This document shows positions 26,524 to 57,604 of a stretch of 64,000 nt of DNA, piece after piece. The position numbers and the translations under genes were made by a program. The notes under the pieces are model-generated. The model was given only the letters and a program-made list of their open reading frames with translations. It made no database searches and was not told where the DNA came from. Each line of letters starts with the position of its first letter. The stretch's first letter is position 1. This stretch comes from an uncultured Hyphomicrobiales bacterium (GTDB taxonomy: Bacteria > Pseudomonadota > Alphaproteobacteria > Rhizobiales > BM303): positions 628 to 64,627 of the forward strand of contig CAZHLV010000085.1 of assembly GCA_964533415.1 (NCBI GenBank), given 5' to 3'.

Positions 26524-26528
26524 CGGAT

Positions 26529-28151
26529 ATGGTACGGCTTCTTGTCTTCTTCATCATTGTTGCCGCCATTGCCGCCGGGGCGGTTTGGCTTTCGGATCAA
26601 CCGGGCTATGTCACGGCCAACTGGCAAGGTTATGAAATCCGCATCAGCATCCTGGTAGCGGCAGCTGCCGGACTGATCGCCTTTACCCTGCTCTATTGGG
26701 CTATCCGTTTTATCAAGAATATCCTGAATGCTCCGAAGGCGGCGGCGGGCGCGGTGCGCCAGCGGCGTCAGCGCAAGGGCTTCGAGGCGCTCTCGCGCGG
26801 CCTTCTGGCGGTCAGCGCCGGGCATGGACGACAGGCGGAGAAACTGGGGGCAAAGGCGCGCAAGCTGTTGCCCGATGAGCCTTTGACCTTGTTGCTTCAG
26901 GCACAGTCCGCCGAGCTTAAAGGCGATAGGGCGGGAGCATCTGATGTGTACCGCAACATGCTGGAACGCGAAGAAACCCAGGCGCTGGGGCTGCACGGGC
27001 TGTTTCTGGAGGCCCGCCGGGTTGGCGATATGCAGGTTGCCAAGGTCATTGCCGAGCGCGCCGTGCGTCTCGAGCCCGATTCGCCCTGGGGCGCACCGGC
27101 GCTGATGGATTTGCAGGCGGCTGAGGGCGACTGGGTAGCGGCCTCGCAGACATTGGCCAAGAAGAAGCAATACCATCTTGTCTCCAAGGAAGGCTACAAA
27201 CGCCAGATGGCGGTTTTGCTTACCGCGCAGGCCATGGAGGCGGAAGAAAACAACCCGGAAAAAGCCCTTGAACTGGCGCTTTTAGCCCATAAGGGGGCAA
27301 ATGACCTGGTTCCCGCGGCGGTGATCGCCGGGCGTTTGCTGGCGCAAAAAGGGCGGATCGCCAAGGCAGCCAAGGTGCTGGAGAAAACCTGGAAACTGGC
27401 GCCGCACCCGGATCTGGCCGAGGTTTATGCGCATCTGAAACTCGGGGACAAACCGGCGGCACGGCTCAAACGCATCCGCTTTTTAACCCACAAGAACAAG
27501 GAACACCTGGAATCCTGCGTGGCGCTGGCCAGGGCGGCGATCAGCGCCCGGGAGTGGGGGCTGGCGCGCGAGGCGCTCGGCCCCTTCATGCAAGCCCCCA
27601 CCCAGCGGGTTTGCACCCTGATGGCCGAGATCGAAGATGGCGAGTTTGGCGACAAGGGCAAGGTTCGCGAATGGCTCGCCCGGGCGCTTCGGGCACAGCG
27701 TGATCCGGTGTGGATTGCCGATGGCCGGGTGTCGCAAAAATGGGCCCCGGTTTCGCCGGTGACCGGCAAGCTCGATGCCTTTGTGTGGAAAGCTCCGCTT
27801 GATGAGCTGCCGCCCTCGGATCTGGCCGGAAACCTGGACCTTGATGCGGATACCGATACAGCATCACAGCCTCCCGAGATCGAGCTTGTCGTGCAAGACA
27901 AAGCTGAAGAAACTGCCCCAGTGGTGGAAACGGGAACTGCAACAAAACAGCCGGAACCAGAATCTGAACCGGCAAAAGAAAATCTTGAAATCGTCAAATC
28001 CGAACCCCCTAAATTAACGCCTGCCCCGGCGGAAAAGACGCCCGAAAAGCCGGTTCTTGAAATCGTTGAGCCACCGCAACCCGATGATCCGGGACCGGAT
28101 ACCGGTGATCGAAGCGGGGTCGGCGGAAAACCGGCGCTGGGTGCGTTTTAA
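26529..28151 (+). CDS. HemY N-terminal-domain/TPR protein with acidic Pro-rich tail
   Basis: N-terminal double-TM HemY_N-like segment (MVRLLVFFIIVAAIAAGAVWLSDQPGYV...), a TPR-like middle region and a low-complexity C-terminus. Confidence 0.75.
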   Translation: MVRLLVFFIIVAAIAAGAVWLSDQPGYVTANWQGYEIRISILVAAAAGLIAFTLLYWAIRFIKNILNAPKAAAGAVRQRRQRKGFEALSRGLLAVSAGHGRQAEKLGAKARKLLPDEPLTLLLQAQSAELKGDRAGASDVYRNMLEREETQALGLHGLFLEARRVGDMQVAKVIAERAVRLEPDSPWGAPALMDLQAAEGDWVAASQTLAKKKQYHLVSKEGYKRQMAVLLTAQAMEAEENNPEKALELALLAHKGANDLVPAAVIAGRLLAQKGRIAKAAKVLEKTWKLAPHPDLAEVYAHLKLGDKPAARLKRIRFLTHKNKEHLESCVALARAAISAREWGLAREALGPFMQAPTQRVCTLMAEIEDGEFGDKGKVREWLARALRAQRDPVWIADGRVSQKWAPVSPVTGKLDAFVWKAPLDELPPSDLAGNLDLDADTDTASQPPEIELVVQDKAEETAPVVETGTATKQPEPESEPAKENLEIVKSEPPKLTPAPAEKTPEKPVLEIVEPPQPDDPGPDTGDRSGVGGKPALGAF

Positions 28152-31166: not shown

Positions 31167-31709
31167 ATGCGATCACCTGTGTTTGTGCGTCTGGCGGAAG
31201 GGACAGCGAGCGTCAACAAGCGCCGTTTTGCCCTGACCATGGCGGGGATTTTCGTTGTCTGGATGGCGCTTGCGGGAAAACTGACGCTGGCTGAAATCCT
31301 GGTGGGGCTGGCGGTTTCGGGTGGTGTTGCGCTGCTGAGCCAGAGCCATTTGTCGATGCTGGATGATCTGAAGCTTTCGGTATCCCTCCCTTTTGATTTG
31401 CTTCGCTATTTCGCGGTGTTTTTCTGGGCGCTGTTGCGGGCCAACCTTGACGTGGCCCGGCGCGTGGCTGCGCCGCGTGTGCAGATCAATCCGGCTATTG
31501 TCGAAGTTCATACCGAACTGAAATCGGATCTTGGAAAATTATGGCTGGCCAATTCCATTACCCTCACCCCCGGTACTTTATGTGTTGATGTCGTTGGCGA
31601 AACGCTCAAGGTCCACTGGATTGATATTTCCCCGGGCGCGGATATCGAACATGCCACCCGCGAGATCGCCGCCCGGTTTGAAGGGCTGCTGAAGGAGTTT
31701 TTGCAATGA
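31167..31709 (+). CDS. MrpE/MnhE-family antiporter subunit (MbxA-position)
   Basis: 180 aa. MAGIFVVWMALAGKLTLAEILVGLAVSG... is typical of the MnhE N-terminus. The start could be later (ATG at 31239). Confidence 0.7.
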   Translation: MRSPVFVRLAEGTASVNKRRFALTMAGIFVVWMALAGKLTLAEILVGLAVSGGVALLSQSHLSMLDDLKLSVSLPFDLLRYFAVFFWALLRANLDVARRVAAPRVQINPAIVEVHTELKSDLGKLWLANSITLTPGTLCVDVVGETLKVHWIDISPGADIEHATREIAARFEGLLKEFLQ

Positions 31710-31990
31710 TCGCTCTGGATTTGAGCTTTTTGGGCGGGTTTGCATTTCTTTTGGTATTGCTGGCCATTGTGCTGGCGGCGGCGCGGTTGCTGATGGGGCC
31801 ATCCATTCCAGACCGGGTTGTGGCAGCAGATGTGCTGGGGGTTATCACCACGGCGGGGCTGGTGTGGCTGGCCAGTGCGCTTGATAACGCTATTTATCTC
31901 GATATTGCGCTGGTTTATGGCGCGCTGGCCTTTGTCGGCGTAGTCGCCATTGCCCGGGCATTGGAGAGCAACAAGGGTAACAAGGGTTAG
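31706..31990 (+). CDS. MrpF/MnhF-family subunit (MbxB-position)
   Basis: 94 aa with 3 TM segments and a PSIPDRVVAADVLG motif typical of MrpF. ATGA overlap with the upstream gene. Confidence 0.75.
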   Translation: MIALDLSFLGGFAFLLVLLAIVLAAARLLMGPSIPDRVVAADVLGVITTAGLVWLASALDNAIYLDIALVYGALAFVGVVAIARALESNKGNKG

Positions 31991-31999
31991 GGGCGGCGC

Positions 32000-32308
32000 A
32001 TGGAAATCATTGGTGATCTGTTTTTCCTGATCGGCGGCATCTTTTTGTTCATGGGTTCGCTGGGACTGGTGCGTATGCCGGATGTTTTCAACCGCATTCA
32101 GGCCGGGGCCAAATCGGCAACGCTGGGCTCGCTGGGATTGATACTCGGCGTATTCTTTTATCACCCGGACTGGTGGGCCAAGCTGGCGATCATTGCCATG
32201 TTCGTGCTGATTACCTCGCCGGTGGGCTCCTCCACCATCGCGCGGGCGGCGCTGAGCATGGGGATTAGGCCCTGGGCGACACGCTCACGCGAAGGAGAGG
32301 GCGAATGA
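32000..32308 (+). CDS. MrpG/MnhG-family subunit (MbxC-position)
   Basis: 102 aa. GSLGLVRMPDVFNRIQAGAKSATLG is typical of MnhG. Confidence 0.8.
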   Translation: MEIIGDLFFLIGGIFLFMGSLGLVRMPDVFNRIQAGAKSATLGSLGLILGVFFYHPDWWAKLAIIAMFVLITSPVGSSTIARAALSMGIRPWATRSREGEGE

Positions 32309-32568
32309 CCATTTTAATCACGCTGATTGTTGGTGTCATGCTTCTGGCAGCGGTGGCTGTCGTGGTGCTCCGCGGGTTTTTAGCCGCGGTTGCAGCGCTG
32401 GCGGCGGTTTCGCTGGCACTTTCGGTTTTGTTTGTGCTGCTGCGCGCGCCCGATGTGGCCCTGGCGGAAGCTGCGGTTGGGGCCGGGCTGTCGGGGGTTT
32501 TGCTGGCGCTCACCTTGCGCCGGGTCGGGTTGTGGCCGGGCGGATCTGCGCGGGAGGATGAATCATGA
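32305..32568 (+). CDS. DUF4040/MbhD-like small membrane subunit (MrpB N-terminal part; MbxD-position)
   Basis: 87 aa. LRAPDVALAEAAVGAGLSGVLL is typical of the MbhD/MnhB N-terminal domain. Confidence 0.7.
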   Translation: MTILITLIVGVMLLAAVAVVVLRGFLAAVAALAAVSLALSVLFVLLRAPDVALAEAAVGAGLSGVLLALTLRRVGLWPGGSAREDES

Positions 32569-33263
32569 AGGGATATGGCCATACCGCCGCAAGCTTGCTG
32601 TTTCTGACCGGTCTTGGAATCTTGCTGATGGCCTTGCTTCAGGCGCTGCCCTTTGGCCATGCACCCATGCAGGTGGGGCAGGCGATCGTGGCTGCCGCGC
32701 CGGGGGATACGGGGGCGGATAATATCGTTACGGCGATTTTGCTGGGCTATCGCGGGCTGGATACGCTGGGCGAGGTGACGATCTTGTTTGTTGCCGCGTC
32801 TGCCGCCGGGATGGTGCTGGGCAGCGCCCGGCGCGGTGAGGCGCAGGCGATAAATGCCGGTTTTATCTTGCATAGCGCGGCTTATCTGCTGTTTCCCTTC
32901 CTGCTGGTTCTGGGGGCATATATCGTGTTGCACGGGCATCTGACCCCGGGCGGCGGTTTCCAGGGCGGTGCCATTCTGGCGGCAGCGTTTTTTGTGCCGA
33001 TCCTGGCTTCACCCGCCAGCCCGTTCAACCATCGCACCGCGGTGCTGGTGGAAGGTTTTGCCGGAGCCGCCTTTATCATGATCGGGCTTTATTCCCTGGT
33101 CGGCGGTTCAGCGTTCCTGACCCCCTTCCTTGGCAAGGGGGCGGCGGGTTCACTGTTTTCCGCCGGTTCCCTGCCGCTGCTGTATCTGGCCATTGGCCTG
33201 AAAGTCGGCTCGGAGCTAGCCGGTCTGATGGCGAGGGTTTCGGGCGGGGAGGCAAGCTCATGA
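32565..33263 (+). CDS. MnhB-domain membrane subunit (MbxF-position)
   Basis: 232 aa with an NIVTAILLGYRGLDTLGEVTILFVA motif of the MnhB family. Confidence 0.75.
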   Translation: MKGYGHTAASLLFLTGLGILLMALLQALPFGHAPMQVGQAIVAAAPGDTGADNIVTAILLGYRGLDTLGEVTILFVAASAAGMVLGSARRGEAQAINAGFILHSAAYLLFPFLLVLGAYIVLHGHLTPGGGFQGGAILAAAFFVPILASPASPFNHRTAVLVEGFAGAAFIMIGLYSLVGGSAFLTPFLGKGAAGSLFSAGSLPLLYLAIGLKVGSELAGLMARVSGGEASS

Positions 33264-33667
33264 GCGCGGGTGCAGTTCTTTATGCCGGGGCTATCGGTCT
33301 TTTCCTGATCGGCTTTTACGCCATGGTGGCCGAGCGCCATCTCATTCGCAATATTCTCGGGCTGGCACTGGTGGAATCAGGCGTTAACCTGCTGCTGGTC
33401 GCGGTGGGCTTTCGCGATGATGCCGCCGCACCGATTCTCAAGGCCGGTCAAAGCGCGGGCGCCATGGTGGACCCGTTGCCGCAGGCGCTTGTTCTCACCG
33501 CCATTGTCATTGGTTTTGGCGTGCTGGCGCTGGCGCTGGCGCTGGTTGTGCGGGTTTACCAGGCTTATGGAACGCTTGATGCGCGCAAGGTTGCCCAGTT
33601 GATGCGGGCGGAAAATGCAGCTGGCGGGTTGCCGGCAGTCAAGCCTCAGGCGGGGGCAAAATCATGA
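33260..33667 (+). CDS. MrpC/MnhC/NuoK-like subunit (MbxG-position)
   Basis: 135 aa. LIRNILGLALVESGVNLLLV is a NuoK/MnhC hallmark, including the membrane-embedded Glu. Confidence 0.8.
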   Translation: MSAGAVLYAGAIGLFLIGFYAMVAERHLIRNILGLALVESGVNLLLVAVGFRDDAAAPILKAGQSAGAMVDPLPQALVLTAIVIGFGVLALALALVVRVYQAYGTLDARKVAQLMRAENAAGGLPAVKPQAGAKS

Positions 33668-35124
33668 ATACGGTTCCGCAGATTGTTTTTCCGGTGGTGA
33701 TCCCGCTCATTGCAGCGTTTCTCTTGCCGATCGCCCGGCGCTGTCATGGCGGGTTTGGCGATATATTCGGGCGCGCGGCGGTTTTTGTTACCTTTCTCGC
33801 CGCGGCCTTCCTGGCCTGGCATGTGGCTGGCAGCGGGCCGGTAAGCTCGGCAATCGGTGGCTTTAAGGCCCCGCTGGGAATCGTGTTTTATGCCGACAAC
33901 CTGGCCATGGCATTCGTGTTGCTGCTCAATATCGGTGTCTGGCTGTTCTGGCCTGAAAGCGAGCATAAGGGCGCAGGGGCACAAACCCTCATCCTTACCC
34001 TTCTGGGCGGCGGCGCGGGGCTGGTGCTGTCGGGCGATCTGTTCAATATCTTCGTGTTTTACGAGATCGTCGCGGTGACCTCTTACGGGCTGGCGGCAAG
34101 CGGAGGTTCGGCGGCGGGCTTTGGCGCATCCTTGCGGTATTTGCTGCTCAGCGCGCTGGGTTCATCGCTGGCGCTGATGGGAATTGCGTTGGTCTATGCC
34201 ACCGCCGGGACGCTTAACCTGGCTGACCTGGCGCTGCTTGCGCCGCATGTCCTCAGGGGTCCCATCGGGGCGGCGGCCTTCTTGCTGCTGCTGATCGGTT
34301 TTGGCGTCAAGGCGGAGCTGTTTCCGGTCAATTCCTGGGTGCCGGAGGTCTATGCCAGCGCCCCGGTGCGGGTAACCTCGCTTCTGGCGGGGATTGTCTC
34401 CAAGCTGGCGCTGATCGTGATCCTGCGTTTTCTGGTGCTGGTTTTCCCGATGCCTTCGGCTTACGGCTTGTTGCTCGTGATCGGGATCCTGGGTGTGCTG
34501 GCCGGTGAACTGGCGGCGTATCGTGCACGGGATCTCAATTCCACATTTGCCTGGTCGTCGATTGCCCAGCTTGGCGTGATCGCCATCGCGTTTTCGATTC
34601 CAGGCCCGGCGGGTATTGCGGCGGGTATTGCTCTTGCCCTGCACCACGCGGTGGTCAAACCGGCGTTTTTCCTCATCGCGGATAAATGGCGCGGGGATGT
34701 GCTGTTTCTGGGCGGCGGGGCCAAGGCGGCGCCCTTTGTCGCCGCCCTGTTTGTCCTGCTTTCGCTCTCCATCATCGGAATTCCGCCGCTGCCCGGCTTC
34801 TGGGCCAAATACCTGCTGCTTGATGCAGCATTTTCCTCCTCCTCCCCGGTCTATGGGCTGGCAGCGGCGGTTGTTCTTGCCGGGGCCGTGATAGAGGCGG
34901 CCTATCTCTTCCGTGCCGCGGGCATTTTTTACGGACGCTCACCAACCGGTCGCGGCGTGCCGCTGTTTTTACTGGGTGAAATGGCCCCGGCCTTTGTGCT
35001 GGGCGCGGTTTTGATCGTTGCCATGCTCGCCCTGCCGGTTCTGGGGAGTTACATCACTTCCATGGCGGTGGAGGCGGCAGATGCCCCGGCCATTGCTTCA
35101 CAAATTCTCATTGGGGGGAAATGA
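33664..35124 (+). CDS. MrpD/NuoN-M-like proton-antiporter subunit (MbxH-position)
   Basis: 486 aa, polytopic, with a Proton_antipo_M-type core (FFVFYEIVAVTSYGL..., KAELFPVNSWVPEVY). Confidence 0.85.
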   Translation: MNTVPQIVFPVVIPLIAAFLLPIARRCHGGFGDIFGRAAVFVTFLAAAFLAWHVAGSGPVSSAIGGFKAPLGIVFYADNLAMAFVLLLNIGVWLFWPESEHKGAGAQTLILTLLGGGAGLVLSGDLFNIFVFYEIVAVTSYGLAASGGSAAGFGASLRYLLLSALGSSLALMGIALVYATAGTLNLADLALLAPHVLRGPIGAAAFLLLLIGFGVKAELFPVNSWVPEVYASAPVRVTSLLAGIVSKLALIVILRFLVLVFPMPSAYGLLLVIGILGVLAGELAAYRARDLNSTFAWSSIAQLGVIAIAFSIPGPAGIAAGIALALHHAVVKPAFFLIADKWRGDVLFLGGGAKAAPFVAALFVLLSLSIIGIPPLPGFWAKYLLLDAAFSSSSPVYGLAAAVVLAGAVIEAAYLFRAAGIFYGRSPTGRGVPLFLLGEMAPAFVLGAVLIVAMLALPVLGSYITSMAVEAADAPAIASQILIGGK

Positions 35125-35128
35125 TCTC

Positions 35129-37009
35129 ATGAGTCTTCTTGATATCCTCCTTGTTCTCTCTTTGCTTCTGACCGGCGGGCTTCTCATCTGGGGCCGTTTG
35201 CCCGGAGCAGGCTGGTTTGCCACCGTGGTTTATGCGTTTATGCTGGGTCTTGTGGCCATGGTCGGCATGCAGCTGGATGGCGGGACCGCCGCGATTCCTT
35301 CAAACCTTGGGTTTAGCGTTCTTGGCCAGGACATGAGCTGGCGGCTTGACGGGCTTGGCTGGTTCTTTGCCCTGTTGAGCGTTGGCGCGGCGTTTTTTGC
35401 AAGCTGGTATGCGAGCGGCGAATGGGGGGCCAGGCAAAAGCGTATCGGCATGCAGCATGGTTTGCTGGCGCTTAATGTGCTGGCCATGTTGCTGCTGCTC
35501 TCCAGCGGCGATCTGCTGAGCCTGTTCATCGGCTGGGAACTGGTGAGCTGGGCGGCATTTGTCATGATGACGCAAGGCGGCGGCGTGGCAATTGCGGCGG
35601 CTTACCGCTACATGATCTACGCGCTGGCCGGGGCCATGGCGGTGTTCGCCGGGATCATGCTGGTGCATAATGTGACCGGCGGATTTGGTTTTGCCGATCT
35701 GCATGCCGCCATCCCGGCCATGTCGGCGGGGCGGCTCTGGGTGCTGTTTGGCCTGTTTGCCGCCGGGTTCGGCGTCAAGATGGCGCTGATGCCGTTTCAC
35801 CTGTGGCAGGCTCCGGCCTATTCGGAAACCCCCGGCGCGTCTTCGGCCTTCTTGAACGCGGTTTCGGCGCGCATGGGGCTGTTTGCGCTTATCCTGGTGC
35901 TGGTCAAGCTGATCGGTCTGGGGGCGCTTGGCTCTCTTGCCATCCCCTTCACCTTCATGAGCGCCAAGAGCCTGTTGATGTGGGTGGCGGCAATCACCAT
36001 GGTGGTGCCGACCTTTATCGCGCTGATGCAGACCGATGCGCGGATGCTGCTCACCTGGCACGGTATCGGGCAAGGCGGCTACATGCTGCTGGGCGTTCTG
36101 GTGGGCACCTCGCTGGGCACGGCGGGCGGATTGCTGCATATCTTCAATTACGCCACCTATCAGGCGGCGCTGTTCCTGGCGGTAACGGCGGTTATCCACC
36201 GCGCCGGAACCTCGGATCTCGATGAGCTTGGCGGGCTGATTACCCGTATGCCATGGACCTATGTCACCTTGTTGATGGGCATTATCGGCCTAGCCGGTCT
36301 GCCGCCGATGAACGGGTTTGTCTCCAAGTGGATGATCTACAAGTCCCTGCTTGATGGCGGTCAGCCCCTGCTTTTGATTATGGCTTTTGCCGGCACGCTG
36401 GGAACGATCCTGAGCGTTTACAAGCTCATTCACAATATCTTCCTCGGGCAACTCAGGCGCGAGCATCAAGACCTCAAGGAAGCCCCGGTTTCCATGGTTC
36501 TGCCGATGCTGATTCTGGCGGGGATCGGTTTTGTCACCGGTTTCATGCCCGGCCTGGCGCTCGATATCACCGATATTGCCCAAAGGGCGATTGGCGGGGA
36601 CAGGCTTGCCCATCATCTGGGCGGCGTGGTTCTGGCCACGGGATCGCTCAACATGCTCTGGGTGGTCGGGGTACTGATCGGGGCGATTGGCGTTGGCGCG
36701 TTGATCTTCTACCTGCTCGGCAACCGGCGCCGGGAAGTGCACCAGTATGACAATTATGCCGGTGGGCATTTCCTCTCGGCCGATATCCGTTACCATTTCA
36801 GCCACGAGTTTTATCCCGGTCTGGCGCGGGTGATCGGCCCGTGGTATCGCGGCTCAATCGTGCGGGCCGAGCAGGGGATCGGCATATTTGTGAATGTGGC
36901 GGGCGATCTGTGGCAGGCGGTGTTCAAGGTTGCCTATACGCCGCTTTACATGCTGCTTGCCGTTGTGCTTGGCCTCATTCTTACCGGAACCGGGGGGATT
37001 GCCCTATGA
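35129..37009 (+). CDS. Second MrpD/MrpA/NuoL-like antiporter subunit with C-terminal extension (MbxH'-position)
   Basis: Part of ORF 35018..37009, with the start at MSLLDILLVL (ATG at 35129). The core contains LFIGWELVSWAAFVMM and KMALMPFHLWQAPAY. A tail of about 110 aa ends in one further TM segment. Confidence 0.8.
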   Translation: MSLLDILLVLSLLLTGGLLIWGRLPGAGWFATVVYAFMLGLVAMVGMQLDGGTAAIPSNLGFSVLGQDMSWRLDGLGWFFALLSVGAAFFASWYASGEWGARQKRIGMQHGLLALNVLAMLLLLSSGDLLSLFIGWELVSWAAFVMMTQGGGVAIAAAYRYMIYALAGAMAVFAGIMLVHNVTGGFGFADLHAAIPAMSAGRLWVLFGLFAAGFGVKMALMPFHLWQAPAYSETPGASSAFLNAVSARMGLFALILVLVKLIGLGALGSLAIPFTFMSAKSLLMWVAAITMVVPTFIALMQTDARMLLTWHGIGQGGYMLLGVLVGTSLGTAGGLLHIFNYATYQAALFLAVTAVIHRAGTSDLDELGGLITRMPWTYVTLLMGIIGLAGLPPMNGFVSKWMIYKSLLDGGQPLLLIMAFAGTLGTILSVYKLIHNIFLGQLRREHQDLKEAPVSMVLPMLILAGIGFVTGFMPGLALDITDIAQRAIGGDRLAHHLGGVVLATGSLNMLWVVGVLIGAIGVGALIFYLLGNRRREVHQYDNYAGGHFLSADIRYHFSHEFYPGLARVIGPWYRGSIVRAEQGIGIFVNVAGDLWQAVFKVAYTPLYMLLAVVLGLILTGTGGIAL

Positions 37010-37902
37010 TGACCTATGTGGCCGATTTCATCTTCATGCCGCTGATTGCCTTTGTCACCGGTCTGGGTCTCGTGCTGATGGCGCGCCGGGTGCGGGCCAA
37101 GATCGAGCGCCGGGTTGGCCCGCCGGTGTTGCAGCCGGTCTACGATATCGTCAAGCTTTATGCCAAGAAGACGCAAATCTCGCACGGGATCATGCATGAT
37201 CTGTCCATCATGATGCTGCTGGGCGGTTTTTTCACGGCGGAGATTTTCCTGCCCGTGCCGGGCTTTGACGGGCTTGCCGGGGAAGGCGATCTGATTACGC
37301 TGATTTATATCATGATGGTGCCGATGCTTGGCCTTGCGCTCGGGGTTGGCTCCTGCGCCAATCCGAACGGGTCTATCGGCATCTCCCGCGCGCTTACCGC
37401 GATGCTGGCCTATGATATCCCGTTTATTATCGCGGTCACCGGCGCCTGCATGGCTTATGGCACCACCAATCTGATCGAGATCGTGCAGATCCAGCAGGCG
37501 GGCGGACCGGCAAGCTGGGGTGCGGCGACCATGCCGCTTCTGGCCTTTGGAGGGTTGCTGGCGGTGCACGGCATGATGGGCAAGGAGCCGTTTGAGATTT
37601 ACATCGCGCCAGCCGAGATCGCCACCGGCCCGATGGTCGAGATGAGCGGCAAATATATGGGCGCGCTGTTCATCATGCAGTGTTTCCAGCTTTACACCAT
37701 CGGTGTCATTTACACGACCTTGTTCCTGGGCGGCGGTGAGAACTGGCCGTTCTTCCTCGCCAAGGTGTTTGGCGTGGTGTTCATCTCGGTGGCGGTGACC
37801 AATGTCTATGGCCGCTTCAAGACCGATACGGTGATCCGCTGGATGTGGAAATGGCCGACCGGGATCGCCCTTGCGGGTCTGGCGCTGGTGATGGCGAATT
37901 AG
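37006..37902 (+). CDS. NuoH/HycD/MbhM-like membrane subunit (MbxM-position)
   Basis: Part of ORF 36841..37902, with the start at MMTYVADF (ATG at 37006, ATGA overlap). RRVGPPVLQPVYDIVKLYAKK is typical of the NuoH family. Confidence 0.85.
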   Translation: MMTYVADFIFMPLIAFVTGLGLVLMARRVRAKIERRVGPPVLQPVYDIVKLYAKKTQISHGIMHDLSIMMLLGGFFTAEIFLPVPGFDGLAGEGDLITLIYIMMVPMLGLALGVGSCANPNGSIGISRALTAMLAYDIPFIIAVTGACMAYGTTNLIEIVQIQQAGGPASWGAATMPLLAFGGLLAVHGMMGKEPFEIYIAPAEIATGPMVEMSGKYMGALFIMQCFQLYTIGVIYTTLFLGGGENWPFFLAKVFGVVFISVAVTNVYGRFKTDTVIRWMWKWPTGIALAGLALVMAN

Positions 37903-37916
37903 GAAGGATAACAACA

Positions 37917-38663
37917 ATGAGTGACAAGCTTCCCGTCGTAGAAGATCAGCCCGAGGTCTGCCGCACTGTGGATGCCAGGGAGCGTTCATTGTGGACCAGG
38001 GTGATGGACCGGTTCGCCGATCACTGCCGCGCCCGCTCGCTTTTCGTGCTGCATTACTGCACCGGCTGCGGGGCGATCGAGCTGCCTCCCACCATAACCT
38101 CGCGCTTTGACATGGAGCGGGTCGGCATCTCGCCCATGGTGACGCCGCGCCAGGCGGATATCCTGCTGATTACCGGGTATCTTTCGGTCAAGACCTTGAA
38201 GCGGGTGATCTTGTCTTATGAGCAGATGCAGTCACCCAAATATGTGATCGGTTTTGGCTCCTGCACCATTAATGGCGGTATGTACTGGAACTCTTACGCC
38301 ACGGTGAAACGGCTGGACCAGTATATCCCGGCGGATCTGTTCATCGCCGGCTGCATGCCGCGGCCAGAAGCGGTGCAGCAGGTGCTGCTCAAGCTGATGG
38401 AGGATATTGATGCGGGCCGCGCCAGGGGCTGGCAGGATTATTACAAGAACTATGATCGTTATCTTGGCAACCAGCAGGCGCTGTTTGGGCCAAGCTGGCA
38501 CACGCCCACCGATGTGATCGCCGAGGCAAAGCATTATGGCTATCTGGCCGAAGGCACCACCGGGATTCATACGGACCTGCTGCTGGAGCGCAAGGAATAT
38601 GCCCTTGACCGTGTGCCGGAGGACTATCCCGAGCGCGGAGAAAACGAGAGGTTTTTGCCATGA
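37917..38663 (+). CDS. NuoB/[NiFe]-hydrogenase group-4 small-subunit-like Fe-S protein (MbxJ-position)
   Basis: The start at 37917 follows GGAAGGA. All four cluster cysteines are present: YCTGCGAIE, GSCTINGG and AGCMPRPE. There is a C-terminal extension of roughly 90 aa. Confidence 0.85.
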   Translation: MSDKLPVVEDQPEVCRTVDARERSLWTRVMDRFADHCRARSLFVLHYCTGCGAIELPPTITSRFDMERVGISPMVTPRQADILLITGYLSVKTLKRVILSYEQMQSPKYVIGFGSCTINGGMYWNSYATVKRLDQYIPADLFIAGCMPRPEAVQQVLLKLMEDIDAGRARGWQDYYKNYDRYLGNQQALFGPSWHTPTDVIAEAKHYGYLAEGTTGIHTDLLLERKEYALDRVPEDYPERGENERFLP

Positions 38664-39184
38664 GCATTCCTGCAAAACTTGAGGATGTCCTGCATGAAAT
38701 GCCGGGAATCAAGGTGCGGACAACAAATGACCGGCGGGTGCGGGTTGATCTTTCCCCCGATACCCTGCCCGCCTTGCTGGAGATTTTGAAAGGGCGGCTG
38801 GGCTATTGCCATCTTTCGGCGATTTCCTGCGTGGACTGGATGGAGACGGACCAGTTCGAGCTGGTTTATCATGTCTGGTCGCACATGCTAAAAACCATGG
38901 TTTCGGCGCATATCTTCATCTCGCGCGATCCGGGGCAGTTTATCTCGGTTTACGACATTCATACCCCGGCAGGCTTTTTCGAGCGGGATATCCACGAGAT
39001 GTTCGGGGTGCATTTTGAAGGCGCGCCCAATCTTGGCAAGTTCATCCTGACGAGCTGGGGCGGACCGCCGCCGATGCTCAAGGACTTCAATACCCGCGAA
39101 TATGTCGAGAAGACCTTTGACTGGGTTCAGTACAGCCCGGACTGGCTGAAAGACATTGAGGCCAAGGGCGGGGGGATCGAATAA
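38660..39184 (+). CDS. NuoC/30-kDa-subunit-like protein (MbxK-position)
   Basis: 174 aa with the FERDIHEMFGVHFEGAPN hallmark. Confidence 0.85.
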   Translation: MSIPAKLEDVLHEMPGIKVRTTNDRRVRVDLSPDTLPALLEILKGRLGYCHLSAISCVDWMETDQFELVYHVWSHMLKTMVSAHIFISRDPGQFISVYDIHTPAGFFERDIHEMFGVHFEGAPNLGKFILTSWGGPPPMLKDFNTREYVEKTFDWVQYSPDWLKDIEAKGGGIE

Positions 39185-40326
39185 TGCGTCCTGAAAACTA
39201 CCGCCCCGTCAAGCATCCGCCAAGCCATGAATACGAGTTGTATTTTGGTCCCAACCATCCGGGGATCGAGGGTAATTATGCCATCCGGGTGCGCCTGAAG
39301 GGTGATGTCATTATCGAGGCGATCGCCGATGGCGGCTATCTGCACCGTGGTTTTGAAAAGATCATGGAAGACCGGCTGTGGATCCAGAATGTGGCGCTGG
39401 TGCCGCGCATTTGCGTGCCCGATCCGGTGCCGATGGAAGAGACCTATTCGCGCGCTGTCGAGATGATCGGCGGGCTTGAGGTTCCCGAACGCGCCCAGTG
39501 GATCCGGGTGATGCTGCTGGAGATGTCGCGCATTTGCGCCCATCTGTTCACCTTTGGCGGCAATGCCGCCACCATCGGGCTTTACACCAACATGTTCTGG
39601 GGCGTGACCATGCGCGATTATTTCCTCGATCTGTTCGAGGAAGTCACCGGGGCGCGGATCTATCACATGTTCATCACGCCCGGCGGGGTGCGGCGTGATT
39701 TGCCGGAAGGGTTTTTGGGGCGTTTGTCTGACCTGCTGGATGAGCTGGAGCGGCGCACGCCGGAGTTTGAGGATCTGTTCTTTGAAAGCGCGGTGGTGAT
39801 AAACCGGGCCAGTGGCACCGGGATCATCACCCAGGAACAGGCGCTTTCATGGGGGGTGACGGGCCCCAATCTGCGCGCCTGTGATCTTCCTATCGATCTG
39901 CGCCGGGATGATCCTTATCTGGTTTATCCCGAGCTTGAGTTTGATGTCATCACTCAAGAGAACGGTGATGCGCTGGCGCGCATGATGGTGCGGCGCGGCG
40001 AGGTGATCCAGTCGATCCGCATCCTGCGCCAGGTGATCGAGCGGCTGCCCCTTGTTGGCGGACCGGTCCGGGCGCCCCTGCCCAACCCGCTGGCCTGGAA
40101 TCTCCCCGTGGGCGAGGCTTATGCCCGTACCGAATCCTCAAAAGGCGAGACGGCCTTTTACGTGGTTTCCGATGGCGGCCCGCGGCCCTACCGGGTGCAT
40201 GTGCGCGGGGCCTCTTCCATGCATGCGGTGCAGGTGCTGGAAAAACTGCTGGTCGGGGCGCGAATCGAGGATATCGCCCAGATCATGTTCTCGCTGGATG
40301 CCTGCCCGCCGGAGGTTGATCGTTAA
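39184..40326 (+). CDS. NuoD/[NiFe]-hydrogenase large-subunit-like protein with degenerate Ni-Fe site (MbxL-position)
   Basis: 380 aa containing GYLHRGFEKIME. The N-terminal motif reads PRICVPD (C77, D80) and the C-terminal motif reads LDACPPEVDR-stop (C374, E377). Confidence 0.85.
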   Translation: MRPENYRPVKHPPSHEYELYFGPNHPGIEGNYAIRVRLKGDVIIEAIADGGYLHRGFEKIMEDRLWIQNVALVPRICVPDPVPMEETYSRAVEMIGGLEVPERAQWIRVMLLEMSRICAHLFTFGGNAATIGLYTNMFWGVTMRDYFLDLFEEVTGARIYHMFITPGGVRRDLPEGFLGRLSDLLDELERRTPEFEDLFFESAVVINRASGTGIITQEQALSWGVTGPNLRACDLPIDLRRDDPYLVYPELEFDVITQENGDALARMMVRRGEVIQSIRILRQVIERLPLVGGPVRAPLPNPLAWNLPVGEAYARTESSKGETAFYVVSDGGPRPYRVHVRGASSMHAVQVLEKLLVGARIEDIAQIMFSLDACPPEVDR

Positions 40327-40327
40327 A

Positions 40328-42154
40328 ATGAGTGATATCAGACCAAAATACAAAGGCTCGCTGCTGCGCCCCATGAAAGCGCTCTCGTTCCTGTTTCGTG
40401 AACCGGCGACCTTGCCCATGGAACCGCGTGAGGCTTCTGAAATCTATCGCGGGTTTCACCTGAATGATTGGGAAAAGTGCATAGGTTGCGGCACATGCGG
40501 CGAGATTTGCGATAATTTTGCCATCCGCATGGCGAAGATTCCCGGTCTGCCCAGCGATCCGGCCAGGGGGGTCAAACCGCGCCGTCCGGTGATTGATTAT
40601 GGCCGGTGTTGCTGGTGTGCGCTGTGCGTGGATATCTGCCCCACCGGCTCGCTCTCCATGTCGCGTGAATATATTCATGTGAGCCGCGATCTCGACAGCT
40701 ACCTGATCCTGCCTGACGAAGCGGGCATGCACGCAGAAAACTTCCAGAAAGGCTGGGCAAAATCAGAGCATTCCGATCTGCTGGATCTGACCCGCCGCGC
40801 CATGGGCGAACTTGAACCTGAGGCCCGGAGTGATAATTTTGATGAAGTCACGAAAGGCTTTGATGCGCAAACGGCGCTGCTGGAGGCCTCGCGCTGCATC
40901 CAGTGCGGCATGTGTCACGAGGCCTGTCCGGCCCATATGCATGCGCCCGAATATATCCGCGCCATCTGGGATGGGGACATGGAGCGGGCGGTGGAAGAGA
41001 TTTACCGCACCAATCCCTTCCCGCATGTGTGCGGGCGCATTTGCACCCATCGTTGCGAGAGCGCCTGTTCCATCGGGCGGCGCGGCGATCCGGTGGCGAT
41101 CCGCTGGCTCAAGCGTTTTGCCATGGATCAGGTGGAGCCGGAAAAGGTGCAGGAGATTGCGCTGAAAAACGGTATTGCCAGATCCACGGGGAAAAAGGTT
41201 GCGGTGATCGGGGCGGGGCCTGCCGGACTGACGGCAGCCTTTGATCTGGCCAGGCTGGGGCACAAGGTGCGTGTTTATGAAGCGCGCCCGGAGCCGGGCG
41301 GCATGATGCGCTATGGCATACCCGAATACCGCCTGCCCTATGACAAGCTTGATGCCGATATCGAGGTGATCCGCAAGGCCGGGGTTGAGATCAGGTGCAA
41401 TGTACGGCTTGGTGAAAATGAGGATTTGCAGAACTTGCGCAGCCGCAACGATGCGGTGCTGATTTCCACCGGGCTCAATCTGGGCCGCTCGACGCGTATT
41501 CCCGGTTCCGATCACCCGCAGGTAGCCTCGGCCGTTGACCTGCTGGCGCGCATTACGCTGGGCGAGAATATCAAGGCCCCCAAACGCATTGCAGTCATTG
41601 GCGGCGGTAATGTGGCGTTTGATATTGCCCGCTCCATGGCGCGCTTGCAGCGCCAGCAGCACGGCAAGGTCAACATGACGGTGCTGGCGCTGGAAGAGCG
41701 CGGCGCCATGCTGGCGGATGAGGCGGAGGTGATCGAATCCGCCGATGAAGGCATCGTGCTCATCAATGGGCGCGGTCCCAGGCAGGTCAGGATCGAAGAC
41801 GGGAAAATGATTGGCCTGGAGACGGTCAATTGCCTGTCAATCTTTGACGAGGAAGGGCGCTTTCATCCCAGATATGATGAAAGTGACCTGATCCTGCATG
41901 ATGTGGACATGGTGATCGAGGCCATCGGGCAGATGTCGGACACAAGCTGGCTTGGCGAGGAACTGACCGAAGCGCTGGAGTGGCAGCGCGGGCGTATCGC
42001 GGTTGATGATGACGGGCGCACCTCCGAGAGCTGGCTGTGGGCGGCAGGCGATCTGGTGCGCGGGCCCGATGTCATTCACGCGGTGGCAGCAGGACACAAG
42101 GCGGCAAGCAGCATCCACGGCGCGATTACCGGCAAGAAGGGAGCTTCACGATGA
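40328..42154 (+). CDS. Fusion protein: NuoI/MbhN-like 2x[4Fe-4S] domain plus GltD/NfnB/SudA-like FAD/NAD(P)H oxidoreductase domain
   Basis: Part of ORF 40052..42154, with the start at MSDIRPKY (ATG at 40328). The Fe-S motifs are CIGCGTCGEIC, CCWCALCVDICP, CIQCGMCHEACP and CGRICTHRCESAC. These are followed by VAVIGAGPAGLTAA, GGMMRYGIPEYRLP and IAVIGGGNVAFD. Confidence 0.85.
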   Translation: MSDIRPKYKGSLLRPMKALSFLFREPATLPMEPREASEIYRGFHLNDWEKCIGCGTCGEICDNFAIRMAKIPGLPSDPARGVKPRRPVIDYGRCCWCALCVDICPTGSLSMSREYIHVSRDLDSYLILPDEAGMHAENFQKGWAKSEHSDLLDLTRRAMGELEPEARSDNFDEVTKGFDAQTALLEASRCIQCGMCHEACPAHMHAPEYIRAIWDGDMERAVEEIYRTNPFPHVCGRICTHRCESACSIGRRGDPVAIRWLKRFAMDQVEPEKVQEIALKNGIARSTGKKVAVIGAGPAGLTAAFDLARLGHKVRVYEARPEPGGMMRYGIPEYRLPYDKLDADIEVIRKAGVEIRCNVRLGENEDLQNLRSRNDAVLISTGLNLGRSTRIPGSDHPQVASAVDLLARITLGENIKAPKRIAVIGGGNVAFDIARSMARLQRQQHGKVNMTVLALEERGAMLADEAEVIESADEGIVLINGRGPRQVRIEDGKMIGLETVNCLSIFDEEGRFHPRYDESDLILHDVDMVIEAIGQMSDTSWLGEELTEALEWQRGRIAVDDDGRTSESWLWAAGDLVRGPDVIHAVAAGHKAASSIHGAITGKKGASR

Positions 42155-42663
42155 GCCAGCATGGCGAGGGGCACAAGGGCGCCCGTGAGCGTCTGGAGGG
42201 CATGAAGTCTTTGGAAGATATTCTTGAAACCGCCATGTCGTTTGAGGAAACCGCCGGGGCGTTTTATTCGGCGCTGAAAGACAAGGTGGGAAAACCGCTG
42301 CGCGAGCTTGTCGGGGAACTGGCTCTGGAAGAAGCAGAGCATTACCGCCTGTTCAAGGCGCTCAGGGACAACCCGGATATTGCCGGGCAATTATCCAGCC
42401 AGGTGCAGGCCCCGGCAGAGGATCATGATTTTTCCAGGTATATCCTGCTGCCGGACCTGGGAGAACATCCGGACGATCAGGCGATCTTGCAATATGCGCT
42501 GGCGCGCGAGGATGCGGCGGCCAAGCAATATGCCGACCTGGCGCAAACCACGCCGGAAGGACCGGTGCGCGACCTGTTCGCTTTCCTTGCCAGGGAAGAA
42601 ATCGAGCACAAGGCGGAGCTTGAAAAACGCTACTATCAACTGGTCCATGGCGGCGGCGTGTAG
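42151..42663 (+). CDS. Rubrerythrin/erythrin-like ferritin-fold diiron protein (no rubredoxin domain)
   Basis: Part of ORF 42037..42663. The ATG at 42151 overlaps the upstream stop (ATGA). The E-x6-Y ... ExxH pattern occurs twice: FEETAGAFY with EEAEH, and AREDAAAKQY with EEIEH. Confidence 0.7.
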   Translation: MSQHGEGHKGARERLEGMKSLEDILETAMSFEETAGAFYSALKDKVGKPLRELVGELALEEAEHYRLFKALRDNPDIAGQLSSQVQAPAEDHDFSRYILLPDLGEHPDDQAILQYALAREDAAAKQYADLAQTTPEGPVRDLFAFLAREEIEHKAELEKRYYQLVHGGGV

Positions 42664-54912: not shown

Positions 54913-55941
54913 ATGGGTTACAAGGTTGCTCTTGTTGGCGCGACGGGAAATGTCGGCCGCGAGATGATGAACATTCTGGATGAACGCGGCTTTCCGGTCG
55001 ATGAGCTTGTCCCGCTGGCCTCGGCGCGTTCTCAGGGCCGCGATGTGTCTTTTGGCGATACAACCCTGAAAGTGCAGAACCTGGAAAATTATGATTTCAC
55101 CGGCACCGATATCGCCCTGCTTTCCGCCGGCGGCTCGATCTCGAAGGAATGGGCGCCGAAAATCGCCGCTCAAGGCTGCGTGGTAATCGACAACTCCTCC
55201 GCCTGGCGCTATGACAGCGACATTCCGCTGATCGTGCCGGAAGTCAACCCGGATGATATCACCGGATTTTCCAGGCGCGGCATCATCGCCAACCCCAATT
55301 GCTCCACCGCCCAACTTCTCGTGGCCCTGAAACCCCTGCATGACGAAGCCACCATCAAGCGGGTTGTCATTTCCACCTACCAGTCCGTGTCCGGCGCCGG
55401 CAAGGCCGCCATGGACGAGTTGTGGAACCAGACCAAGGGCATCTTTGTCACCGATTCGCCAAGCCCGGAAAATTTCACCAAGCAGATTGCTTTCAACGTC
55501 ATCCCCCATATCGACGTGTTCATGGAAGATGGCTACACGAAAGAAGAATGGAAGCTGATGGCGGAGACCAAGAAAATGCTTGATCCCAATATCAGGCTCA
55601 GCGCCACGGCGGTGCGGGTTCCGGTCTTTGTCGGCCACGGCGAGGCGGTCAATATCGAGTTTGAAAACCCGATCACGCCGGATCGCGCCCGCGAGATCCT
55701 GCGCGAGGCTCCCGGCTGCATGGTCATCGACAAGCGCGAAGATGGCGGCTATGTCACCCCGGTGGAATGCGTTGGCGATTATGCCACTTTCGTTTCGCGC
55801 ATCCGCGAGGACGCAACGGTGGAAAACGGCCTTAACATCTGGGTTGTTTCGGACAACCTGCGCAAGGGCGCAGCCCTGAACACCGTCCAGATCGCCGAGT
55901 TGCTCATCAACCGCGGCTTGCTCAAAAAAGACGCGGGCTAA
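54913..55941 (+). CDS. asd: Aspartate-semialdehyde dehydrogenase
   Basis: MGYKVALVGATGNVGREM N-terminus and active-site region IANPNCSTAQ. Confidence 0.93.
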   Translation: MGYKVALVGATGNVGREMMNILDERGFPVDELVPLASARSQGRDVSFGDTTLKVQNLENYDFTGTDIALLSAGGSISKEWAPKIAAQGCVVIDNSSAWRYDSDIPLIVPEVNPDDITGFSRRGIIANPNCSTAQLLVALKPLHDEATIKRVVISTYQSVSGAGKAAMDELWNQTKGIFVTDSPSPENFTKQIAFNVIPHIDVFMEDGYTKEEWKLMAETKKMLDPNIRLSATAVRVPVFVGHGEAVNIEFENPITPDRAREILREAPGCMVIDKREDGGYVTPVECVGDYATFVSRIREDATVENGLNIWVVSDNLRKGAALNTVQIAELLINRGLLKKDAG

Positions 55942-56974
55942 GCGTAACCACGCTGTTCTCTTCATCTTTCAGGTGAATACGCGCCTTCATGGCCGGGTTG
56001 AGATAGATCCGGCCATGATCGTCCACCAGCATGGCATATCTCACCCCCATGCGCTTGGCGATGCGGAACCAGTCTTCAGGTCCGGCCACCGAAAGCGCCG
56101 TGGCGGCGGCATCGGCATCGGCGCCACTGGTTCCGATCACGCTGGCCGAGACAATATGCTTCACCGGCCAGCCGGTGCGCGGATCGATGATATGCGAATA
56201 ACGCACCCCTTCATGTTCAAGGAAGCGCTCGTAATTGCCCGAAGTATAAAGCACCTCGCCGGGTTTCAGCTCAACGGTGGCAATCACGCCCCAGTTCTTG
56301 GGATGGCGAATCCCGGCGCGCCATGGCCGGTCAGAGTGAACCCCCATCACGTTGAGATCGCCGCCGGCGTTGAGGACCGCGTTCCTGATCCCGTGCGCTT
56401 TAAGCCGGATCACCGCCCGGTCCAGCGCCTCGCCCTTGGCAAAACCGCCAAAATCAAGGCTCACGTCTTTATTGCGCGAAGACACCTCATGCCCCTTGAT
56501 GACCAGATCCGCCACCTTTGGCCTTGAGGCCACCCAGGCCCTGATCGCCTCATAGGGCGGCGCGCGGCCCTTGGGCAGGTTATCGTCATGAAACCCCCAA
56601 TCGGCCACCAGCCCGCCGATTGCCGCGTTAAACAGCCCGTCACTTGTCCGTTCATAGCGCTGCGCCTGAAGCAGCAGCGGCAGCAGGAAATCACTCACTT
56701 GCACCGATTTGCCCGCCGCTATCGCCGCATTCAGGGAACTCAGTTCACCGGGTTTCCAGGCATGCCAGTCCTTGTGCATATGGCGAAATTCAGACCCGAC
56801 ATCTTTCAGCGCCGCCCGCGCGGTTGCCTTGTCCGAATCGCGGATGGTTATCTCGACAATCGTGCCAAAAACATAAAGTTTCTCGCGCAGTTCAGATTCA
56901 GGTTGCTTGCACCCGCCGGCAACCAGCAAAAAAACGAGACCAACAAGGATGCAACTAACGGATCTGGTCAGCAT
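55922..56974 (-). CDS. apbE: FAD:protein FMN transferase (ApbE family), lipoprotein
   Basis: Part of ORF 55922..57190, with the start at MLTRSVSCILVGLVFLLVAGGC (lipobox). The ApbE-like body includes NAGGDLNVMG and YSHIIDPRTG. Confidence 0.85.
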   Translation of the reverse strand: MLTRSVSCILVGLVFLLVAGGCKQPESELREKLYVFGTIVEITIRDSDKATARAALKDVGSEFRHMHKDWHAWKPGELSSLNAAIAAGKSVQVSDFLLPLLLQAQRYERTSDGLFNAAIGGLVADWGFHDDNLPKGRAPPYEAIRAWVASRPKVADLVIKGHEVSSRNKDVSLDFGGFAKGEALDRAVIRLKAHGIRNAVLNAGGDLNVMGVHSDRPWRAGIRHPKNWGVIATVELKPGEVLYTSGNYERFLEHEGVRYSHIIDPRTGWPVKHIVSASVIGTSGADADAAATALSVAGPEDWFRIAKRMGVRYAMLVDDHGRIYLNPAMKARIHLKDEENSVVTLSPRLF

Positions 56975-57446: not shown

Positions 57447-57604
57447 GCTCAGGATGCAGGCGCCGTTTCGGAACGGGGCGCGGCATATTGCCCTTTTTGT
57501 TGACCTATAGCCTTCATAACTATTCCTGTTCTGTCCGCTTTGGTATATTAGTCAATGCAAATACAACTTGATCCACGCGATATTAGCACAGGCTACGAGG
57601 CTTC

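Follow-up and report, generated by a model that had tools for sequence, protein, structure and literature searches.

The stretch of DNA analysed here, 64,000 nucleotides from an uncultured Hyphomicrobiales bacterium (contig CAZHLV010000085.1; hereafter, the window), carries at positions 40328-42154 a gene whose 608-aa product joins an MbsN-type ferredoxin subunit to an NfnB/GltD-like flavoprotein. The gene belongs to an operon for a relative of the archaeal membrane-bound sulfane reductase (MBS, formerly Mbx), and the fusion is the usual bacterial form of the last MBS subunit. The favoured reading, to which an even chance is given, is that the fused protein serves as the electron-input (or exit) subunit of an NADH-linked, ion-translocating oxidoreductase of the MBS type, probably reducing sulfane sulfur and maybe reversible. 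It starts from the domain composition of the protein, the MBS-type identity of its partner subunits, the conserved cofactor ligands and the conserved operon, all of which were observed. Electron path, preference for NADH, acceptor, ion coupling and direction are inferred.

A conserved fusion of MbsN with an NfnB/GltD-like module

Translation of the gene yields 608 residues with no internal stop. Its ATG lies 1 nt past the stop codon of the mbsL-like gene, and a GGAGG is found 12 nt upstream. The parts of the fusion are the following:

40328-42154, + strand: mbsN::nfnB/gltD-like fusion gene, 608 aa; 16 of 16 Fe-S cysteines invariant in 69 sequences
40343-40750, + strand: MbsN/NuoI-type domain with two [4Fe-4S] clusters, residues ~6-141; 6u8y_N at 8.7e-28; eight cysteines and an extra C95
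40751-40798, + strand: conserved linker, residues ~142-157; aligns to neither MbsN nor NfnB
40799-41137, + strand: Fer4_20-type N-terminal region of the GltD-like module, residues ~158-270; two [4Fe-4S] clusters; Pfam 1.1e-30
41192-42136, + strand: FAD and NAD(P)H domain with two dinucleotide folds, residues ~289-603; Pyr_redox_2 5.9e-28; 5jca_L first in Foldseek

Pfam places a Fer4 dicluster at residues 47-107, Fer4_20 at 168-270 and Pyr_redox_2 at 289-585. The cluster ligands are C51/54/57/61, C94/97/100/104, C190/193/196/200 and C235/239/243/247, while VAVIGAGPAGLTAA, GGMMRYGIPEYRLP and IAVIGGGNVAFD are found at residues 291, 324 and 421, respectively. Among solved structures, the best match of the N-terminal 160 aa is the MbsN chain of the Pyrococcus furiosus MBS (6u8y_N, residues 6-141), with MbhN (1.2e-12) and Nqo9 (2e-11) well behind. 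Residues 158-603 match Thermotoga maritima NfnB (4ylf_B) at 3.7e-74, P. furiosus NfnI-L at 1.8e-72 and the NfnB-like domains of StnC/NfnABC at 3e-75, the match to GltD being weaker (2e-50).

An earlier note on this DNA had proposed a single 608-aa polypeptide, composed of a NuoI/MbhN-like domain and a GltD/NfnB/SudA-like module and encoded behind a NuoD-like gene. The uninterrupted frame, the Pfam hits and the structure matches agree with this proposal, and the motifs it quoted all lie at the residues it gave. Its linker of about 50 residues was overestimated: the unaligned stretch between the two halves measures about 16-25 residues and is no loose spacer, G142, R156 and M159 each being conserved in at least 97% of the 69 sequences. 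An additional cysteine, C95, directly follows C94, the ligand that opens the second MbsN-type cluster motif, and forms with it RCCWC (C94-C95 at 40607-40612); it is present in 67 of the 69 family members, and the corresponding position is Thr in P. furiosus MbsN.

The spread of the fusion was followed by searching 5.8 billion proteins, with matches summarised as cluster representatives. At least 120 representatives of 590-628 aa were found, with 96-100% query coverage and 61-100% identity, in Hyphomicrobiales, Beggiatoa, Parabeggiatoa, Thiomargarita and other Gammaproteobacteria; when a distant member served as the query, at least 120 more, of 575-774 aa, were obtained. Loci were compared on contigs from one genome per species. 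At least 80 were collected, and nearly all cover the query from residue 12 or below to residue 596 or above, the exceptions being a few cut by a contig end or a run of Ns. They belong to Alpha- and Gammaproteobacteria, Spirochaetota, Bacteroidota, Chlorobi, Halanaerobiales, Cloacimonadota, WOR-3, Aminicenantes, Bipolaricaulota and others, for about ten phyla, and isolates with the fusion include Lamprobacter, Celeribacter, Tropicimonas and Halanaerobium. An exact-sequence look-up of the window protein gave no match on record. The nearest locus (L001), from an alphaproteobacterial metagenome-assembled genome (MAG), has a fusion of 91% identity and operon proteins 86-98% identical to those of the window. 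Over the 69 aligned full-length sequences, the FAD and nucleotide motifs are as invariant as the Fe-S cysteines.

The comparison excludes the frameshift artefact considered in the earlier note, and the fusion is genuine. That separate mbsN and gltD-like genes had been joined by an assembly or frameshift error can be given practically no weight, because the same frame and the conserved linker recur in 79 loci from independent assemblies, isolate genomes included, and at least 240 protein clusters are full length.

In the GltD-like module, the cysteines are spaced as CX2CX2CX3CP and CX3CX3CX3C; all eight are invariant in the 69 sequences, and both motifs are two residues shorter than in T. maritima NfnB. 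Also invariant in the family are GxGxxG (295-300), E318, GGMxRYGIPxYRLP, GGGN (425-428) and G574-D575. A Foldseek search with the confident part of the predicted model returned 5jca_L (NfnI-L) first, NfnI-L and NfnB giving TM-scores of 0.85-0.87, normalised to the target.

In adrenodoxin-reductase-type folds, the motif YRR after beta2 of the nucleotide fold provides the site for the 2'-phosphate of NADPH, and an acidic residue at the end of beta2 favours, as a general rule of Rossmann folds, NAD(H). The Arg pair is absent from the fusion family: where 4ylf_B and StnC/NfnABC (9bov_A) have YRR, an xLE is found (L455 and E456, each conserved in at least 97% of the 69 sequences; ALE at 454-456 in the window protein). 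Since xLE replaces YRR, the general rule suggests a preference for NADH over NADPH; of the "NAD(P)H" of the earlier note, NADH is the likelier cofactor. As regards a non-cysteine ligand of the FAD-proximal cluster, the Glu of the GRLERF stretch of T. maritima NfnB aligns with the invariant K262 of the fusion, but 9bov_A also has Lys there, and nothing is concluded from the difference.

The MBS-type operon and its neighbours

The fusion comes thirteenth in a cluster of 14 genes on one strand (31167-42663), in which stop and start codons mostly overlap. Pfam matches to all 13 mbs-type genes give the order mbsABCDEGHH'MJKLN, followed by a rubrerythrin-like gene; this is the gene order of the archaeal MBS (PMC7684303). 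The other genes of the operon are:

31167-31709, + strand: mbsA-like (MnhE/MrpE); Pfam MNHE 5.5e-37; first gene of the colinear order
31706-31990, + strand: mbsB-like (MrpF); Pfam MrpF_PhaF 1.2e-15; start overlaps the preceding stop as ATGA
32000-32308, + strand: mbsC-like (MnhG); Pfam PhaG_MnhG_YufB 7e-24
32305-32568, + strand: mbsD-like (MbhD); Pfam MbhD 1.7e-16
32565-33263, + strand: mbsE-like (MbhE/MnhB); Pfam MnhB 1.8e-20, MbhE 3e-7
33260-33667, + strand: mbsG-like (NuoK/MnhC type); Pfam Oxidored_q2 2.5e-24
33664-35124, + strand: mbsH-like antiporter-type subunit; Pfam Proton_antipo_M 3.5e-47
35129-37009, + strand: mbsH'-like antiporter-type subunit with a long C-terminal extension; best PDB match 6u8y_X (MbsH') 3.2e-50
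37006-37902, + strand: mbsM-like membrane anchor (NuoH type); best PDB match 6u8y_M 9.7e-50; MbhM 1.3e-17
37917-38663, + strand: mbsJ-like (NuoB type), proximal [4Fe-4S] cluster; 6u8y_J 9e-62, gap-free alignment of 167 aa
38660-39184, + strand: mbsK-like (NuoC type); Pfam Complex1_30kDa 2.8e-23; best PDB match 6u8y_K 1.7e-14
39184-40326, + strand: mbsL-like (NuoD or [NiFe] large-subunit type, with no NiFe site); 6u8y_L 3.5e-112, full length
42151-42663, + strand: rubrerythrin-like di-iron protein; Pfam Rubrerythrin 1.5e-11; ATG overlaps the stop of the fusion (ATGA), translationally coupled

The six subunits compared with solved complexes (N, L, J, M, H' and K) all match the P. furiosus MBS (6u8y) far better than the membrane-bound hydrogenase (MBH) or complex I. 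The mbsH'-like protein aligns to 6u8y_X end to end (9-618 against 8-613), MbhH reaching only 4e-36, and the mbsL-like protein is further from Nqo4 (4e-76) and MbhL (8e-43) than from MbsL. By these matches the host complex is of the MBS type (formerly Mbx), rather than Mbh or complex I; this refines the earlier note, which had compared the chain with Mbh/Mbx and with complex I.

The catalytic region supports the same assignment. In the P. furiosus MbsJ, the proximal-cluster motif (C25-x2-C28, C93 and C123) has a shortened loop, which leaves one iron without a cysteine ligand (PMC7684303). The mbsJ-like protein of the window has the corresponding CTGCG (C48, C51), GSC (C116) and GCMPRPE (C146), reading YCTGCGAIELPP against FCTGCGGIEMPP in the region of the proximal cluster; the shortened-loop CTGC motif is kept in the gap-free alignment, which suggests a three-cysteine proximal cluster in this subunit. 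The mbsL-like protein keeps two of the four NiFe cysteines, C77 (RICVP) and C374 (DACPP), equivalent to C85 and C385, the two remaining [NiFe] cysteines that are a defining feature of P. furiosus MbsL (PMC7684303). A group 4 [NiFe] hydrogenase (Mbh/Ech) was rejected, as only C77 and C374 are left of the four cysteines and the match to MbhL is far below that to MbsL. A canonical complex I (Nuo) was rejected as well: the operon lacks NuoE, NuoF and NuoG genes, and its NuoB-like subunit has CTGC in place of the tandem CC.

The operon is conserved together with the fusion. In 64 of the 69 loci with enough flank, across about ten phyla, the fusion directly follows an MbsL-like gene, and the whole A-B-C-D-E-G-H-H'-M-J-K-L-N(fusion) order is colinear in 40 of 47. 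A different layout was seen in giant sulfur bacteria (Thiotrichaceae, Thiomargarita, Parabeggiatoa and a Guaymas gammaproteobacterium; L002, L003, L004 and L006), where the fusion and a rubrerythrin-like gene occur with no mbs genes directly upstream; the upstream sequence covered was about 3.5 kb for L004 and 10 kb for the other three. The Thiomargarita locus (L003) has, directly upstream of the fusion, a single-domain rhodanese gene (9622-9951; PF00581, 2.9e-19) and a sigma-54/GAF regulator. In a MAG from a sulfidic cave (L010, 9039-9995), mbsA to mbsH' are followed by a DUF697 gene and the fusion, with M, J, K and L absent from between them.

The product of the last gene of the window operon contains two ExxH motifs, at residues 61 and 150, and no cysteine at all, hence no rubredoxin domain; it is, by its sequence, an erythrin-like di-iron protein only. 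By a tblastn search with this protein, 26 of 75 loci have a homologue as the gene immediately after the fusion. The association is wider than this count, because the search missed divergent genes of the Cloacimonadota type: in L049, L070, L072 and L073 a 151-aa rubrerythrin-like gene follows the fusion (PF02915, 1.5e-9; for example L073, 11964-12419). Seven loci of the Spirochaetota type (L023, L026, L027, L028, L030, L031, L033) have fusion reading frames of about 750 aa, with an extra C-terminal domain of about 150 aa that is again Pfam Rubrerythrin (3.5e-13 in L031; PF02915 precomputed on many matches). The same triple fusion is found in the proteins P0312, P0324, P0336, P0346, P0355, P0359, P0366 and P0125, and its occurrence in Spirochaetota ties the separate rubrerythrin-like gene of the window to the complex.

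Flank-gene clustering over at least 80 loci returned no recurrent sulfur-transfer genes, the families found being DHODH-like, CBS-domain and rubrerythrin-like. The DHODH-like gene (about 329 aa; PF01180, 2.9e-16) lies directly 3' of the fusion in 19 Bacteroidota/Chlorobi loci (range L043-L080; for example L061, 11782-12771), and in L043 it is fused to the MbsN-GltD protein in a 931-aa reading frame; next to a GltD-like module, it suggests a pairing like that of DPD/PreTA. Ten loci of the Bacteroidota/Chlorobi group (range L050-L079; for example L052, 13098-13574) share, downstream of the operon, a gene for a CBS-pair protein of about 158 aa.

A possible NADH-linked sulfane reductase and the alternatives

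With its 13 subunits, MBS is related to complex I and is built around an Mrp antiporter. Electrons of the archaeal enzyme pass from soluble ferredoxin through the two MbsN clusters to the three-cysteine MbsJ cluster and on to polysulfide (PMC7684303). In GltD-like modules, two low-potential clusters relay the electrons of NAD(P)H to a partner protein (PMC8097209). The most economical account of the anatomy of the fusion, we infer, is a nicotinamide/flavin site feeding the Fe-S chain. Hydride from NADH would be taken up by the FAD of the GltD-like module, and single electrons would then pass through the two [4Fe-4S] clusters of the module and the two of the MbsN part to the proximal, three-cysteine cluster that the MbsJ-like subunit would hold in the MbsJ/L/M chamber. 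Polysulfide or a similar sulfane-sulfur compound would be reduced at this point, and the reduction would drive H+ or Na+ movement through the Mrp-like arm. The fused module would thus let NADH take the place of ferredoxin as electron partner.

Potentials of about -320 mV for NADH and about -260 mV for polysulfide leave a span of about 60 mV, or about 12 kJ per two electrons, which makes a modest pumping and an easy reversal both plausible; because the span is small, the enzyme is probably reversible. The yield is close in magnitude to the figure of 12 kJ/mol/2e- given for the energy-conserving MBH (PMC8165549). The sole experimental hint in the fused lineage is the 4.4-fold increase of T. maritima mbxA with S0 (PMC9431562), a gltD-like subunit having been reported from Thermotoga's Mbx-like operon (PMC4758237).

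Several points weigh against this NADH-to-sulfane-sulfur wiring. The activity of the fused members is predicted from sequence, and the preference for NADH from the motif rule rather than from a characterised NADH-specific homologue. In the AlphaFold2 model (47-sequence alignment) the GltD-like part is confident, but residues 1-152 have a pLDDT below 50, so that no cluster-to-cluster distances are derivable. The link to T. maritima comes from the literature only, since the second protein search, which was seeded with the "Thermotogae" MAG protein of L047, gave Bipolaricaulota, WOR-3 and Spirochaetota. The Thermotoga (PMC9431562) and Mesotoga (bioRxiv 10.1101/322537) papers assume ferredoxin as the donor; members are also found in Rhodobacterales that live aerobically (Celeribacter, Tropicimonas) and are not known to reduce sulfur; sulfur-related flank genes are rare, being limited to one rhodanese gene in Thiomargarita and one ArsR-rhodanese gene in Lamprobacter; and the GltD-like module might have another electron partner in the DHODH-like neighbour of the 19 Bacteroidota/Chlorobi loci.

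In an older view, Mbx is a ferredoxin:NAD(P)+ oxidoreductase: ferredoxin would feed the MbsN clusters and NAD(P)+ would receive the electrons from the GltD-like flavin, with ions pumped as by Rnf. This view was proposed in the paper that describes this architecture (PMC4758237) and was also applied to Mesotoga (bioRxiv 10.1101/322537), and the retained MbsN domain could still dock ferredoxin. However, later work showed that archaeal Mbx is a sulfane reductase and not a ferredoxin:NADP+ oxidoreductase (PMC7684303, PMC8165549). The proposed path would also skip the MbsJ/L/M chamber, the site of redox-ion coupling in complex-I-type enzymes, where the MBS-specific features are conserved, and it would duplicate the Rnf encoded 16 kb downstream in the window (rnfC, 58513-60249); we regard it as improbable. 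The same low probability is assigned to an enzyme working in reverse in sulfur oxidisers, where an ion gradient would push electrons from sulfide or polysulfide to NAD+ and supply chemolithoautotrophs with cheap NADH. The closest relatives do cluster among Gammaproteobacteria that oxidise or store sulfur (Beggiatoa, Thiomargarita, Parabeggiatoa, Ectothiorhodospiraceae, Chromatiales, Thiobacillaceae, Sedimenticolaceae), a rhodanese gene adjoins the fusion in Thiomargarita, and with so small a redox span, on established potentials, reversal is thermodynamically easy. The taxonomy of the hosts gives no direction, because these gammaproteobacterial sulfur oxidisers also reduce stored sulfur under anoxia, and the same enzyme is carried by fermenters (Halanaerobium, Bacteroidales, Spirochaetota, Bipolaricaulota).

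A non-sulfur acceptor, with the chamber reducing another substrate and the GltD-like module of Bacteroidota perhaps serving a DHODH-like FMN partner in the manner of DPD/PreTA, would account for the DHODH-like gene downstream of the fusion, or fused to it in L043, for the presence of the family in aerobes and for the few sulfur genes in the flanks. It appears quite unlikely in view of the strongly MBS-like MbsJ, MbsL and MbsM subunits, catalytic-cluster motif included, and the window operon has no DHODH-like gene. Still more doubtful is a membrane-anchored bifurcating or confurcating module, in which electrons from NAD(P)H would be divided at the NfnB-like FAD, some entering the Fe-S chain and others going to a second acceptor (perhaps the rubrerythrin-like protein), or those of ferredoxin and NADH would be merged there. 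The C-terminal module is nearer to bifurcating NfnB/NfnI-L (3.7e-74, TM-score 0.87) than to GltD (2e-50), and the di-iron protein is genetically coupled or fused to it; the NfnB-like domains of Stn/NfnABC are, however, not themselves proof of bifurcation. An NfnA-type partner ([2Fe-2S] and FAD, FNR-like) was found neither in the 14-gene operon nor in the about 50 window reading frames scanned, nor among the recurrent flank families of the at least 80 loci. Most members lack a rubrerythrin gene directly downstream (26 of 75 have one), and the step from NADH to polysulfide leaves no surplus energy for the reduction of ferredoxin. Of the three roles offered in the earlier note, ion-coupled reduction of sulfane sulfur, or its reverse, fits best, while bifurcation is unlikely, with no NfnA-like branch and no spare driving force.

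A more comprehensive version of the NADH-linked reading, which we hold to be rather unlikely, would make the complex a reversible, ion-coupled NADH:sulfane-sulfur oxidoreductase and an independent, second attachment of an NADH dehydrogenase to a complex-I-type pump. It would run backward in sulfur-storing or -oxidising bacteria, making NADH from sulfide or polysulfide for about one ion and avoiding the expensive reverse flow from quinol, and protection of the exposed catalytic cluster in microoxic cells would fall to the rubrerythrin-like subunit.

Other genes of the window, known systems and significance

Outside the operon, RnfC is encoded at 58513-60249 (+ strand; confirmed by Pfam) within an rnf cluster region of 55922-62674, and the organism thus appears to have a separate ferredoxin:NAD+ pump. 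An ApbE gene (55922-57190, - strand) adjoins the rnf cluster, which is on the + strand; the reading frames at 57605-58756 (rnfA/B) and 60246-62674 (rnfD/G/E) were assigned by position alone. At 7488-11208 (- strand), a tungsten-type aldehyde:ferredoxin oxidoreductase (AFOR_N/AFOR_C, 1e-137) lies between a polyferredoxin-like Fer4 protein and a Pyr_redox_2 flavoprotein, an AorABC-like layout that is unusual for an alphaproteobacterium. An 809-aa molybdopterin oxidoreductase of the DMSO-reductase family, with Molybdopterin_N, adjoins a c-type cytochrome at 14230-17718 (- strand), with a SulP-family permease at 12569-14233. Mitofilin-like (alpha-MICOS type) and HemY-N proteins follow hemC and hemD at 24553-28151, which fits an alphaproteobacterial origin.

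With the P. furiosus MBS (6u8y) the window operon shares the 13-gene order, the best match of all subunits tested, the CTGC motif of MbsJ, the two vestigial NiFe cysteines of MbsL and the eight cysteines of MbsN. The two differ in that the archaeal MbsN is a protein of 208 aa fed by free ferredoxin, whereas in the window it carries a fused module of about 450 aa with FAD, an NAD(P)H site and two further [4Fe-4S] clusters, for a total of 608 aa; the additional rubrerythrin-like gene and the mesophilic proteobacterial host are also features of the window.

The earlier note could not tell whether the fusion had been catalogued, and its novelty was overrated, since operons of this kind are on record. 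Degli Esposti, in 2015, described Mbx-like operons of Thermotoga and proteobacteria in which a gltD-like flavoprotein is found at the NuoI position, "substituting" NuoI, with rubrerythrin often as the terminal gene (PMC4758237). While that account reads a substitution, the NuoI/MbsN domain is here retained and fused, and the function it assigned, from ferredoxin to NAD(P)+, predates the finding that Mbx is a sulfane reductase. In the literature searched, the architecture is described in PMC4758237 only: the fused GltD-like form is mentioned neither in the structural study of MBS nor in a 2021 review on complex-I-like enzymes (PMC7684303, PMC8165549), nor in the 2021 review of GltD-like modules (PMC8097209), nor in the Thermotoga (PMC9431562), Mesotoga (bioRxiv 10.1101/322537) and deep-branching-bacterium papers. 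The present analysis adds to the 2015 record that the MbsN domain is retained, that catalytic features specific to MBS and an NADH-type signature are present, that the family is broad and that a triple fusion with rubrerythrin occurs.

NfnB and NfnI-L (SudA) (4ylf_B, 5jca_L) have the same fold as the module (TM-score 0.85-0.87, 35-36% identity), with two N-terminal [4Fe-4S] clusters, FAD and a nucleotide fold; the window protein differs in the lack of an NfnA partner, in cysteine motifs two residues shorter, in xLE for YRR and in K262 for the Glu of the T. maritima GRLERF. The large subunits of StnC and NfnABC (8oh5_C, 9bov_A), the top sequence match (3e-75), likewise have an NfnB-like domain fused to further Fe-S domains, but they belong to soluble transhydrogenases, are fused to HydA-like domains and have the NADPH-type YRR. 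GltD and the GltD-like modules of DPD/PreT and AegA use the same route, from NAD(P)H over FAD and two low-potential clusters to a partner; here the partner is a complex-I-type peripheral arm, which is absent from the GltD-like contexts of the 2021 review (PMC8097209). The N-module of complex I (NuoEFG) works on the same principle, with a flavin oxidising NADH and single electrons entering the NuoI-NuoB chain of an Mrp-derived pump. The proteins are, however, unrelated: the window protein would hold FAD on an adrenodoxin-reductase-like fold, while NuoF holds FMN, and the acceptor pocket is of the MBS and not of the quinone type. GltD-like NADH input would be an evolutionary solution independent of NuoEFG.

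If this wiring is true, a widespread bacterial pump of the MBS type would be fed by NADH through a GltD-like flavoprotein, and a membrane-respiratory partner would be added to the known contexts of GltD-like modules. It would also constitute a natural experiment in nicotinamide input onto a NuoI-NuoB chain without NuoEFG, bearing on the origin of the N-module of complex I. In current metabolic models, "Mbx" depends on ferredoxin (those of Thermotoga, Mesotoga, Halanaerobium, Bacteroidales and the giant sulfur bacteria), and a dependence on NADH, if true, would alter them; culturable hosts exist, so that the question of NADH input is open to direct testing.

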